Shown here: positions 9,132 through 35,987 of the stretch, in pieces | How the letters are laid out: every line of letters starts with the position of its first letter | Position numbering within the stretch: position 1 is the first letter of the stretch | Source of the DNA: a virus | Lineage: Duplodnaviria; Caudoviricetes | Virus record (IMG/VR): IMGVR_UViG_3300032216_001733 | Location: 1 to 36,009 of that record | DNA: 36,009 bases | Strand: one strand, 5' to 3' | Translations under genes and position numbers: made by a program | The notes under the pieces: generated by a model | What the model was told of the DNA's origin: nothing | What the model saw: only the letters and a program-made list of their open reading frames with translations | Database searches by the model: none

Positions 9132-11294
9132 ATGTTTGGTCCGAAAAAAATATCTCAATCTTTGATTGATGCAGTTCTAAAGATAACCGAAGAAAAACCT
9201 GAAGTTACTCGTGCACCGCAGTTATTAGACGAGGCAGATAAAGTTCCTACACCAACAGGAATGAAAGTGTATGGCAGCCGTTATGGAAATTCTGCCAAAG
9301 CTCGTAGAGACCAAACTAAGGCAGCTGTTGACACACTAAAAGGTCCTAAGGACAAAGAATTAATAAAAGATGATGAAATAGATGAAACTGGTTTTCACGC
9401 AGCTGCTCACGGTGCCAAGAAAGCAGGTCAATCTCATTTTGAGTTCCAGGGTAAAAAATATCCTGTTACAGCAAAATCTCATGCTGAAGCGATTGAAGAA
9501 GATGGTGATTGTGTGACCAAACCACAAGCAAAAGATATTGCCAAGAAAGAAGTTGGCAAACACGAAAAAGGTATGCATGGTAAATCAGGTGAAGTTGCCA
9601 AGCACGAAAAGAAAATGCACAAAGAAGATATTGGACTAGATGAAGCCTCAACATATAAATTGGGTCGTGCGGATGCTGAAACTAAAGAATTTCCAATTAA
9701 ACAGAATGGTGAACATGTTGGTAGATTAGAGTTTCACGTTTCAGCTGGCAAATTACACCACCGTGCAGGTAATGCTAAAGGTGTATCATATGATAAGTGG
9801 CACGGAAATCCAGATACAGAATCTCTTATTAATACTCATGTTGCAAAGCACGAAGCAGAAGCACGAAAACACTTTGCTAAAAAACTTAAAGAAGGTATGT
9901 CTTTTAAAGAACGTTTACTTGAGCGTGAAATGACTTCTGCTGAATCTCGTAAAAAAGAAAAGATTGTTATGTCGATGAAGGACAAACAAGAATATTTCAA
10001 GAAGAAGTATGGTAAAAAGTGGAAAGAAGTAATGTATGCTACTGCTACTAAGCAAGCCATGAAAGAGGATATTGTTTCTGAAGAAGTTCTTGATTTGCCT
10101 ATCGATCCTCTTACTGGTGAATTTGTGAATGATAGAGAATTGATATCATCAAGCTACAATGAGAAATTAAAAAATGGCCAAATGGTTATGATTGAAGAAG
10201 GTGTTGAAGAATTGGATGAATTTACTGCAAGACAACTTCCTGGTTATCGTGAAAAGAAAGCCAAACTTATGGCAGCTGCCGCTAGCAAATTGCCAACAAA
10301 AGAAGAAGTTAAGAAATCTGATGTTCCAGCTTTCTTACGCAAGATTCGTGGTGACAAACCATTGACAATGAAAGATGTTAAATCTGGTGACAAAGATTCT
10401 ATTTCACACAAAGATAACCTTGCTAAGGCAAAGAATGAAGAAGTTGAATCTTTGGATGAAGATAATCTCGATTCTATTGCTAAAAAACATGGCATGGAAT
10501 TTAACAGAACCACTTACGGTGCAGGAATGAAACATCCAAAACATGGTGAAATTTCTATTAGTCGTTATGGTGAATGGCATCATTATCCTGCTGGATCAAA
10601 TCGTTCTAAAGCTCACGGAGATAGCACAGATAAATTTTCCAGCTTAGACAAACACCTTTCTTCATTAAAAGAAGATGTTGAAGTTATTAATAATAAAAAC
10701 GGACACAAAACCACAACAGATATGTTATCTGGTCGCCATGAAGGTGGTAAATTAAATTCGTTTAAAAACTTTAAAGTAAACTTGGTCGTTAGTGGTGAAG
10801 AAGAAATTCCTACAGAAGTTGATAAAGGTGAAGATACTAAAGAAAAACAAAAGATTACTACTAATCCTGGTCCAGTAGATATTAAGTTTGATGATAAGTT
10901 GGTAACTCCTCCACACAAATATTTTTCTAGTCAAAGTGCTGTTACGAGTGAAGAAGTTCGTGGCGAATTAAAAAAAATTCGTACAAAAGAGAAAGCTATA
11001 CACAATAAAGAAGTGAGTAAATTTGCTTCACATAAGGCAACAAAAACAACCCAAACTGAAGAAGAAGTTCAAGAAGCTAAAGATCCACATATGGATGCTG
11101 GTGTTGGTGCTCAACCAGATTTTGCCACAGAAAAAGTTATTGCTGGTACTGAGGGCTGGAAGAAAGTTACTAAGAATGTAACCGACAAATCTGGTGCAGT
11201 TCATACTCCACATTCCCGTGCTAAAGATTTGGCTCGTCAAGCATTTAAAAAAGTTAAAAGTGAAATGTTAGGTAAAGCACCAGGAAATAACTAA
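9132..11294 (+). CDS. Putative head-internal polyprotein-like protein
   Basis: K/E/H-rich, no TM segment, repeated LDE/IDE/IEE/LKE sites, internal MSFKERLLE. Confidence 0.6.
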   Translation: MFGPKKISQSLIDAVLKITEEKPEVTRAPQLLDEADKVPTPTGMKVYGSRYGNSAKARRDQTKAAVDTLKGPKDKELIKDDEIDETGFHAAAHGAKKAGQSHFEFQGKKYPVTAKSHAEAIEEDGDCVTKPQAKDIAKKEVGKHEKGMHGKSGEVAKHEKKMHKEDIGLDEASTYKLGRADAETKEFPIKQNGEHVGRLEFHVSAGKLHHRAGNAKGVSYDKWHGNPDTESLINTHVAKHEAEARKHFAKKLKEGMSFKERLLEREMTSAESRKKEKIVMSMKDKQEYFKKKYGKKWKEVMYATATKQAMKEDIVSEEVLDLPIDPLTGEFVNDRELISSSYNEKLKNGQMVMIEEGVEELDEFTARQLPGYREKKAKLMAAAASKLPTKEEVKKSDVPAFLRKIRGDKPLTMKDVKSGDKDSISHKDNLAKAKNEEVESLDEDNLDSIAKKHGMEFNRTTYGAGMKHPKHGEISISRYGEWHHYPAGSNRSKAHGDSTDKFSSLDKHLSSLKEDVEVINNKNGHKTTTDMLSGRHEGGKLNSFKNFKVNLVVSGEEEIPTEVDKGEDTKEKQKITTNPGPVDIKFDDKLVTPPHKYFSSQSAVTSEEVRGELKKIRTKEKAIHNKEVSKFASHKATKTTQTEEEVQEAKDPHMDAGVGAQPDFATEKVIAGTEGWKKVTKNVTDKSGAVHTPHSRAKDLARQAFKKVKSEMLGKAPGNN

Positions 11295-28530: not shown

Positions 28531-29188
28531 GATGTTCAAATCTAGTCAACCAATCAAAAATTGCTTATTGTTAGAGTTCAATACGCAAAAAGATTTAGCA
28601 CTAGCCTTCTGCCGTGTTGAAGAATACTACGAAGGTCAACCACAACTGAATAGAAAATATACTTCATTCGTAGATTTTATTGATTTCTTTATGAAAGATG
28701 ATGGCAGTATTAATTATTTCAATTATTGGTCAGGATTTAACATTCCCGGTAATGTTTTTACCGAGTGGTCACAAAAAGAAATGCACGATAAAACAAAATG
28801 GGAATTAGCATTAGCTGATGAAGTTCAAAAGAAACTAAATTTAGAAAAACCATTTTACATTATTGGTGGTAAAAAAGGTGACATGAATGTAATTGACCAT
28901 GAAATTGCTCATGCGCTTTATTACATGAATACTGAATATAAAGATTTAATGGATGCTGCAAATTATCAATTCTATAAAAATCTAAGAATGGAATATTCTA
29001 AGATGGTAAAGAAATTAAAGAAGATGGGTTACGGTGATAATGTCATTAAAGATGAGGTTCAGGCCTATATGTCCACGTCCACCAAAAAAGAATTGGTAGA
29101 GAAATTTGAGTTGGATTTTGTTAAAATTAAAGGCTTCAGAACCCTATACCGTAAAGTGTTGTCCCGGTACAACACATCCAAGAAATAA
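28523..29188 (+). CDS. HExxH zinc-metallopeptidase-like protein
   Basis: HEIAHALY plus downstream DEVQAY. Confidence 0.6.
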   Translation: MSKMFKSSQPIKNCLLLEFNTQKDLALAFCRVEEYYEGQPQLNRKYTSFVDFIDFFMKDDGSINYFNYWSGFNIPGNVFTEWSQKEMHDKTKWELALADEVQKKLNLEKPFYIIGGKKGDMNVIDHEIAHALYYMNTEYKDLMDAANYQFYKNLRMEYSKMVKKLKKMGYGDNVIKDEVQAYMSTSTKKELVEKFELDFVKIKGFRTLYRKVLSRYNTSKK

Positions 29189-34507: not shown

Positions 34508-34554
34508 CCTCCTGAAAAAATTCCTGGAACTCGTGGTGCCTCCAGGAAAAAATT
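34508..34554. repeat. Direct plus inverted repeat
   Basis: CCTCC(T/AG)GAAAAAATT twice; TTCCTGGA (34521-34528) and TCCAGGAA (34541-34548) form an 8-bp inverted repeat. Confidence 0.6.
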
Positions 34555-34632
34555 TCGAATCCTCTCGTTCCGGCCCAAAAAATAAAAATTTGATTATTTT
34601 AGTTTGACCTGGAATAGACTTTTTCTTAATAA

Positions 34633-34742
34633 AATCAATAACATAGTGCGTTGCTTTCATACAACAGCTGCGCCAGAAAAGCTGCGCTCAAAATAACACT
34701 ATAAATTACTCAAGTATTATTCTCAATAAAATCAACGACTTA
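34633..34742 (+). promoter_or_regulatory. Two IHF-consensus-like sites
   Basis: AATCAACGACTTA (34730-34742) matches WATCAANNNNTTR exactly; AATCAATAACATA (34633-34645) has one mismatch. Confidence 0.5.
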
Positions 34743-34836
34743 CATGCGTGAAAATATCACTTGACTGATTTCATCAATTCTGTTATACTTATAAAATAGA
34801 AATTTATCGAAAATCGTGCGTTGTTTTATTACAACA
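34646..34836. repeat. Two copies of a 21-nt GTGCGTTG-N8-CAACA element
   Basis: 34646-34666 and 34816-34836, 18/21 identical, flanking the promoter. Confidence 0.7.
34761..34789 (+). promoter_or_regulatory. Sigma70-type early promoter
   Basis: TTGACT, 17 nt, TATACT with extended TG. Confidence 0.8.
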
Positions 34837-34889
34837 CATTATCTCGATATTATATTATTATTATTTTATTATGAAAGTGAATATATTAT

Positions 34890-35285
34890 ATGAATAAAAA
34901 AGAAAATAAATTAATCGATATTCTCGATTATTGTGAATCGATTATCTCTGATACTGAGAATATCGAAGAATTTTTGAATGAAGAATATCTAGATAGTCAA
35001 GAATTTTTTGTTATTCGTCAAAATGCAGAAGATATTCAGTCTATTATCGTATCATATGATATTGATAATAATGAGTCATTATCTGAAGATGATATTCTAG
35101 AAATTGAAGAAAAACGTATTCAAATATATCAATATTCAAAATATATTCTAGAGTCAGTTTTAGAAATTAAAAAATCTAATTCTGATTATAGTAATTTAGA
35201 TGATAATGAGAAATTCGTTATTAAGTGTTTTAAAGATATATCTGAATCAGTAAGTATTATCTCAGACTTAATTGAAAGTGTATAA
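34890..35285 (+). CDS. Acidic hypothetical protein with no Gly, Pro or Trp
   Basis: 131-aa ORF after the promoter; upstream GAAAGTG. Confidence 0.65.
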   Translation: MNKKENKLIDILDYCESIISDTENIEEFLNEEYLDSQEFFVIRQNAEDIQSIIVSYDIDNNESLSEDDILEIEEKRIQIYQYSKYILESVLEIKKSNSDYSNLDDNEKFVIKCFKDISESVSIISDLIESV

Positions 35286-35286
35286 T

Positions 35287-35637
35287 ATGAATAATGATAT
35301 TAAAGCATTATCTAATATGAGTATTACTGAATTAAAACAGTTATTATCATGCGTTAATCAAGATATTAAGAGTATCAAAAAGCGTGAAAATGCATTAAAG
35401 AAAATCGATAATGAAATATCTGAATATGATATTTGCAATGAATATTCTGCTAAATTCAGTAAAACGGTAATAATCGAGAATATTGAGAATAAAAAGATTA
35501 AGCAAGATATTCAGATCCAAAAAGATATTCTCGATTATCTCGCAAGTGGTAAACATATTATCTGCGCAAAACAGAGAAAATCGAAGAAATTCAATTCAGT
35601 ATTATCTTATACTAATAATAAGATAATCAGTATATAA
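35287..35637 (+). CDS. Hypothetical coiled-coil protein
   Basis: ATG 35287 preceded by GAAAGTG. Confidence 0.6.
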   Translation: MNNDIKALSNMSITELKQLLSCVNQDIKSIKKRENALKKIDNEISEYDICNEYSAKFSKTVIIENIENKKIKQDIQIQKDILDYLASGKHIICAKQRKSKKFNSVLSYTNNKIISI

Positions 35638-35678: not shown

Positions 35679-35708
35679 GTTTACAAAGTGGCAAATATGT
35701 AGTAAAAT
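35679..35708 (+). promoter_or_regulatory. Early promoter (T4-early-like GTTTACA)
   Basis: TTTACA, 17 nt, TAAAAT. Confidence 0.65.
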
Positions 35709-35771: not shown

Positions 35772-35987
35772 ATGTTATTAATCGACACTATTCAAGCATT
35801 ATCATTAAAAGATAAAAGAGCATTAGTTAAAACAATTCGCTCTATTATCTCTGAGGAAGTAAAAGAGCAGAAGGTATTAAAAGTATTTTCTAAAGTCGCA
35901 AAAGAAAATGAGAAAAAAGCGAAAATCGAAGCGCAGATTAAAGCAGCGCAAGAGAAACTTGCCAAATTAACTGCTAAATTAGCATAA
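35772..35987 (+). CDS. Small basic coiled-coil protein
   Basis: RBS AAAGGA; K/A/E-rich. Confidence 0.65.
   Translation: MLLIDTIQALSLKDKRALVKTIRSIISEEVKEQKVLKVFSKVAKENEKKAKIEAQIKAAQEKLAKLTAKLA

Follow-up and report, generated by a model that had tools for sequence, protein, structure and literature searches.

The coding strand of a small phage gene and of its leader is devoid of the dinucleotide GG, and in the window (the whole 36,009-nt stretch of viral DNA analysed here) this absence extends to CC, so that positions 34675-35465 (791 nt) hold zero GG and zero CC between a CC at 34673 and a GG at 35466. The desert is real; regarding its mechanism, we infer that the mRNA of the gene, which encodes an acidic 131-aa protein, may be kept free of GG as an early counter-defence message that escapes a GG-reading host RNA toxin, a reading that we favour tentatively and hold at somewhat less than an even chance. 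The features to which the text refers are the following.

34508-34626, + strand: landmark, made of phased A-tracts with CC/GG on either side, followed by GTTTGACCTGG (34602-34612) and a run of T
34613-35465, + (coding) strand: GG-free run, 853 nt
34650-34665, no strand assigned: GTTG-N-TACAAC inverted repeat, operator-like, copy 1, read from the sequence
34675-35516, + (coding) strand: CC-free run, in the window lineage only
34761-34789, + strand: sigma70-type promoter, TTGACT-17-TATACT with extended TG, a consensus match only
34820-34835, no strand assigned: second copy of the operator-like motif, within the 5' leader and with no CC in its spacer, read from the sequence
34873-34879, + strand: putative ribosome-binding site GAAAGTG, GG-free, read from the sequence
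34890-35285, + strand: gene of the acidic 131-aa protein, first behind the landmark
35287-35637, + strand: gene of a basic 116-aa protein
35680-35708, + strand: second sigma70-type promoter, a consensus match
35772-35987, + strand: gene of a Lys/Ala-rich 71-aa protein, with an AAGGA ribosome-binding site

The GG/CC desert in the window

The 791-nt gap had been claimed in the initial annotation of this DNA, and it proved exact. When these nucleotides were shuffled 20,000 times, GG and CC together came to 21.8 +/- 4.1, with a minimum of 7; the runner-up gap in the window is 142 nt, and the longest one in 300 block-shuffled windows is 306 nt, which rules out composition alone. Counted separately, GG is 0 against 13.6 expected and CC is 0 against 8.1 (P about 0.0002), and from the desert through the window end both words stay as sparse as had been stated (10 against 41.6 expected). 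All GG contexts are missing, namely AGG, CGG, GGA, GGT and TGG, while GA is enriched and the palindrome TCGA, noted earlier as persisting, is enriched as well (12 versus 2.4). Mis-assembly is ruled out, because positions 34595-35379 are matched with 0 differences by a contig from run X1, which may be the source sample, and because deserts recur in the assemblies L016 (759 nt) and L017 (485 nt). Avoidance of UV dimers was rejected, as the AA/TT and TC counts are not low, and, folded as a single strand, the desert is unremarkable (z -0.07).

The three open reading frames (131, 116 and 71 aa) contain no Pro, no Trp and one Gly, as first described, and their 6 GG and CC compare with 20.6 after synonymous recoding with the codon usage of the genome and with 13.8 after recoding with their own codons; the depletion thus persists in controls that preserve either composition or amino acids. 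In the acidic gene, the G- or C-ending codons that would create GG or CC number 0/33, versus 16/105 elsewhere, and 19 other genes of the window are free of this junction bias (306/1,748 versus 929/5,321). The idea that selection at the nucleotide level has reshaped the proteins is supported; the effect survives the control for protein sequence.

Regarding the signals around the genes, transcription is predicted to start near 34796, and a GG directly downstream of the -10 box may have been retained for promoter function. The operator-like motif, which we presume to resemble a HexR box, has a further copy at 29158 and recurs close to early promoters in relatives, where the spacer of most copies contains CC or GG. 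The sequence GAAAGTG was correctly placed upstream of the first two open reading frames; its supposed tie to the desert was rejected, given that GAAAG is also found upstream of RNase H (25767) and of further genes whose GG counts are ordinary. The 116-aa gene is probably co-transcribed with the acidic gene; its orthologues contain from 3 to 30 GG and CC, and the N-terminus of the protein has what we take to be a likeness to the H-NS oligomerisation helix, with no H-NS-like match in Pfam or the ESM Atlas. The 71-aa gene, Gly-free and yet with GG kept at its codon junctions, serves as an internal control. At L285, a 105-aa Lys/Ala-rich gene that resembles it follows the acidic homologue (9235-9552) and is also GG-poor (4 versus 14.3 expected).

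Strand, transcript and codons in homologous genes

The DNA of the acidic gene was compared at 14 loci (the window, L016-L018, L285-L292, L297 and L302). Coding-strand GG is zero in six of them, the window, L016, L017, L018, L285 and L286, whose genes are 65-95% identical and for which 7.0-11.1 GG would be expected each; L287 has two GG, in the form of one GGG at +70. The other seven hold between 5 and 13 GG: 6-13 in L288-L292, 5 versus 12.6 expected in L297 and 7 versus 13.8 in L302, the last two being out-of-sample loci that were found last and that both failed the prediction of zero GG. The genes of the window, L016 and L017 lack both words, while CC is normal in L018, L285 and L286 (7, 10 and 10, versus 4.1, 7.2 and 6.9 expected). 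In these latter three loci, GG is found at -62 to -6 of the predicted start and then again only at +451 or +522, beyond the next promoter, and the neighbouring genes have ordinary GG. With L018, L285 and L287 pooled, the promoters contain 10 GG in 210 nt, and the transcripts 2 GG in 1,229 nt versus 29.2 expected, with 19 CC versus 17.0. The absence of GG therefore coincides with the transcript limits as predicted from consensus promoters. Promoters carry GG and CC in L018, L285, L286 and L287, and CC in L017; only in the window and L016 are the promoter and its flanks free of both.

Since these homologues are GG-poor in the transcript, GG-rich in the promoter and normal in CC, the conserved rule is a GG-free message and not a two-strand purge of a protospacer-adjacent motif (PAM), and a word missing on one strand, across the transcript but not the promoter, points to RNA. 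The initial proposal of a double-strand GG/CC target (I-F or Cas9 PAM, GGCC/CCGG) is not supported as a general cause, because L018, L285 and L286 lack only coding-strand GG. The additional loss of CC is confined to the lineage of the window, and a contribution at the DNA level to this part is possible; the RNA rule on GG gives no account of why the window, L016 and L017 have lost CC as well. Close relatives at the same locus have reduced sense GG and undiminished CC, and those without the acidic gene show a milder loss in the first kilobase, as in L001 (GG 8 of 24 expected, CC 16 of 16). The purge is absent at the locus in G001, L013, L003 and L007. The GG-free genes occupy two parts of a weakly resolved tree.

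A narrower form of the DNA-level explanation supposes that a PAM (CC for type I-F, or NGG for Cas9) is avoided in DNA that enters first and encodes an anti-CRISPR protein, and we consider it unlikely, if worth weighing. RNA polymerase would strip complexes from the other strand, so that one orientation would be purged first. A processive Cas3 would reach the gene from a PAM-bearing promoter or neighbour, such as those retained, together with CC in the gene, in L018, L285 and L286. In addition, the close relative G001 shows no purge, and a total purge is easier to account for by a toxin that hits its word wherever it occurs than by a PAM, which also needs a matching spacer. Supporting the PAM explanation, the purge of GG and CC alike is complete in the window and L016, their differing non-coding DNA included, and the 116-aa protein has zero Pro in the window, where its orthologues have 0 to 7 and most of them 1-7. 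Moreover, the available parts of two papers describe fewer CC in I-F targets (PMC12174588) and a vulnerability of T5 to CRISPR in its pre-early DNA only (PMC5389539).

Effects on protein or translation alone would dispense with any target word, and we rate them as improbable to a similar degree. They would comprise acidic helices without Gly, Pro and Trp, whether for the fold or under a toxin of Gly-tRNA, AT drift to 23% GC, and avoidance of the G|G codon context. The all-helical predicted model agrees with this account, as does the scarcity of Trp and Pro even in far homologues; highly expressed genes (capsid, gp32) already halve their G|G junctions (capsid, 8/86 versus 32/164), and leading plasmid DNA is described, in the accessible portion of PMC13478746, as tuned for translation and not by loss of motifs. 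Among 82 close homologues there are 2 Gly in 11,290 residues, and the 15 proteins of the L285 clade have 0 Gly and 45 Pro; 29 Gly in 14 farther proteins indicate that the fold tolerates this residue.

Several counts oppose the translational account. A G-ending codon stands before G in 0/89 cases versus 25/171 otherwise in the window, L018, L285 and L287 (p=1.5e-5, a pooled value that is optimistic because the genes share ancestry), for C the counts are 5/35 versus 41/246, and AGG or CGG make up 0/10 of the Arg codons; across five genes junction GG is 0/109. Gly and junction GG reappear together in L288-L292. The non-coding parts are also empty, with P(0)=0.00075 for the 215 nt of the desert. 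Among 29 Gly/Trp-free open reading frames of at least 70 aa, GG is zero only in the three of the acidic family, and other Gly-free proteins retain 1-46 GG each. In 1.51 Mb, 8/8 GG-free runs of at least 350 nt, among the matches listed, are acidic-family coding strand, and other sigma70-promoted genes have mostly ordinary GG. Synonymous tests on single genes are weak (P 0.03-0.20).

The acidic protein, the landmark and the leading zone

The acidic protein has 33 Asp and Glu against 12 Lys and Arg (pI 4.05), and is modelled as an all-helical four-helix bundle (pLDDT 86). Its family, with 54 close homologues and 23 more found by profile, is PHROG 3334, of unknown function. Nothing above the cut-off was returned from Pfam, PDB sequences, the ESM Atlas or PADLOC, the last with one weak ZorC match in 1/15 members, and a search of cultured phages with a far homologue gave no match. 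The gene is a mobile insertion at the first position: a contig of run X2 joins 34866 to 35287 without it, and it is absent from 10 related records, two of them complete. The protein remains a candidate counter-defence factor, as it had been at the outset.

The landmark consensus, A-tracts ending in GTTTGACCWGG, is present at 20/22 loci examined, the window included, and was retained in 55/120 pattern hits, the remaining 65 being excluded by a filter on upstream A-tracts; cultured phages gave no match. A C-rich spacer, a sigma70-type promoter and small variable genes follow it. The element is a candidate terminus/pac or origin and a point of module exchange. At 34595-34624 the window and G001 share the left flank and differ in the right one, and L012 and L016 likewise have a common left flank and different right sides. 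In run X1, the landmark coincides with a graph branch and a depth step from 22.6 to 35.6, a rise equally compatible with two strains sharing a module and with a terminal repeat.

Contigs tend to end behind the landmark: 34/55 do so within 3 kb downstream and 1/55 upstream; among loci with 10-kb flanks the figures are 21/30 and 0/30 (9 and 12 of 50 for unrelated hits), and after clustering 27/43 end downstream. The leading 2.5-kb zone probably enters, or is expressed, before the rest of the DNA. The earlier assumption of a first-entering region gains indirect support from these ends and from the thinning of palindromes described below, and the contig-end pattern fits a T5-like or Autographiviridae-like first-entering end and a hypervariable region equally well. 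Together, the landmark and this zone suggest that these abundant T4-like phages of lakes have a preferred end for entry.

The zone also has a composition of its own. In G001 the bottom four of 323 scored windows for amino/keto runs lie in its first 2-2.5 kb, as do the bottom five in G009 and in G016, with no such minimum behind the landmark in G011, G015 and G018. From 0 to +2.5 kb in the near clade, one-strand A/C (and G/T) runs are short, the AA/AC/CA/CC steps are down, and AT/TA/GC/CG are up. In the sister clade (G011, G015 and G018), the zone genes from +200 to +2000 point towards the landmark, as seen in L047 and L123, and GA is low on the gene strand (O/E 0.64-0.68; TC 0.76-0.81), which is possibly avoidance of a CmdT-like GA target. 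DnaA-box-like motifs, mostly paired, are found at +2406/+2465 in G011, +2577/+2631 in G015 and +2226 in L123, counted from the landmark, and in L288, L289, L292, L297 and L302 they precede the acidic gene by 110-190 nt; none occurs at about +2.5 kb in G001, G009 and G016.

These features raise the explanation that many restriction-modification sites were purged cumulatively from a T5/T7-like leading region, with the GG/CC loss as the extreme tail, for which the chances appear slim. GC-containing 4-bp palindromes fall clearly downstream in five of eight genomes, with O/E of roughly 0.4-0.5 over +2 to +15 kb for G001, G009, G011 and G016 and over +0.2 to +5 kb for G014, compared with 0.65-0.8 far upstream, and ACGT is missing across 16.9 kb downstream in G001. 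In the leading zone AC, GAAC and GATG are low, the last two on both strands; real non-palindromic sites score 0.69 in the relatives versus 0.77-0.84 for permuted decoys, and the part of PMC12455610 at hand offers a precedent. Against this stand the palindrome gradient itself, which is slight in G012 and G018 and lacking in G015, the equality of real sites and decoys within the desert (0.45 versus 0.43-0.53), its enrichment in TCGA, and the strand symmetry of restriction sites. A phage DNA methyltransferase as the reason was rejected, with no PF00145 or PF01555 in five records, one of them complete.

The window represents part of a T4-like phage genome, and G001, a complete record of 161.8 kb, is about 85% identical to it across 26.0-32.3 kb. 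That the phage is a freshwater one is weakly indicated by how the records of related contigs are named and by small-share runs with freshwater or aquatic labels. The nearest capsid protein is that of Methylophilales phage Melnitz (65%); NrdA leads to Alphaproteobacteria, at only about 50%, capsid and endolysin weakly suggest Betaproteobacteria from their sequences, and the deformylase comparison was uninformative. No RNA holder of the sequence was found among the matches listed. The word CGCG occurs 0 times in the window, 2 times in G001, and 0 or nearly 0 times in the counted parts of G009, G011, G012, G014, G015, G016 and G018; it is a clade-wide avoided word and probably a host restriction site.

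The strand and transcript pattern would be the same if the message were spared by a GG-directed RNase of the phage itself, with RegB-like timing or for host shut-off, as T4 RegB cuts GGAG. We judge this very improbable, because nearly all other phage genes have ordinary GG and G001, so similar to the window, has no purge; a search for regB matched 0/5 records, with the control silent too. Local mutation bias near a genome end or origin, to which the sharp shift of GC skew and amino/keto alternation at the landmark could be ascribed, is scarcely credible, because the lack of GG travels with the gene to phage loci that have no landmark motif, and because it ends at the predicted transcript limits.

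The GG-free message and known systems

In the reading that we favour, a host toxin would cut or modify single-stranded RNA at GG, the acidic protein would be made early as a counter-defence factor while the toxin is active, and a message and leader without coding-strand GG would stay translatable under it. The strand-specific absence of GG acts on Gly, on the choice of Arg codons and on codon junctions. In the lineage of the window, the gene comes first behind the landmark, in a 2.5-kb zone that probably enters or is expressed first. There, we infer, a further thinning at the level of DNA removes CC, AC and restriction-type words, from which the CC half of the desert would result. The transcription limits, the toxin and the function of the protein are the conjectural parts of this reading. 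In its fullest form, it would involve an undescribed toxin of freshwater bacteria that reads GG in single-stranded RNA and is neutralised by acidic four-helix phage proteins, made from GG-free messages of a gene at the fixed T5-like leading end of a T4-like genome; taken as a whole, this is rather doubtful.

If this is true, an anti-defence gene would be recognisable from the dinucleotide that its coding strand lacks, and that word would reveal the specificity of the blocked defence. Avoidance of target words is known for DNA, in the form of restriction sites and PAMs, and a dinucleotide-purged message would extend the concept to RNA-level immunity. The purge costs glycine and predicts the specificity of an unknown toxin, so that a scan of coding strands for missing words would be a sequence-only route to anti-defence genes. 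In the literature covered, which includes few subscription papers, neither a GG-specific toxin or RNA defence nor a phage message stripped of a dinucleotide or toxin word was found.

Among known systems, T7 Ocr is a small acidic helical DNA mimic encoded by the first gene behind an early promoter. The 131-aa protein is likewise small, acidic, predicted to be helical and first behind an early promoter; no match to Ocr was found by sequence, and comparison of its model gave generic four-helix bundles only (best Z 14.4, rmsd 3.0, 114 aligned). Ocr is also discussed in the available part of PMC12455610.

Depletion of PAMs in phage genomes, as far as PMC4246573 and PMC12174588 are available, is statistical and genome-wide. 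The desert resembles it in that CC/GG is the I-F PAM and a short word is selected against, and differs from what those parts describe in being total, local and, in most carriers, one-stranded.

T4-like phages are usually taken as circularly permuted. The present genome, although T4-like, shares with T5/T7-like first-injected regions, as described in the accessible parts of PMC10644984, PMC12455610 and PMC5389539, the small variable early genes behind sigma70 promoters and the fewer restriction words behind the landmark. Moreover, the sister clade shows oppositely oriented transcription units, together with pairs of DnaA-box-like motifs, at about +2.5 kb, much as T5-like phages carry DnaA boxes at the first-step border (PMC10644984, in the part available). 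Unlike in T5 and T7, the purged word is a dinucleotide on one strand; the present region is known from assembled contigs.

The closest precedents for the proposed target are RNA toxins, here again from the available parts of the sources: CmdT, which ADP-ribosylates mRNA at GA (PMC11618068), the MazF of Nitrosomonas europaea, which cuts UGG (PMC6186784), and the archaeal MazF family, with UGG/UGN (PMC13107127). The desert departs from both CmdT and MazF, as so described, in missing every GG context and not TGG alone, and in its enrichment in GA. What it would share with them is a target of 2-3 nt in single-stranded RNA, and a message without such a word would be immune.
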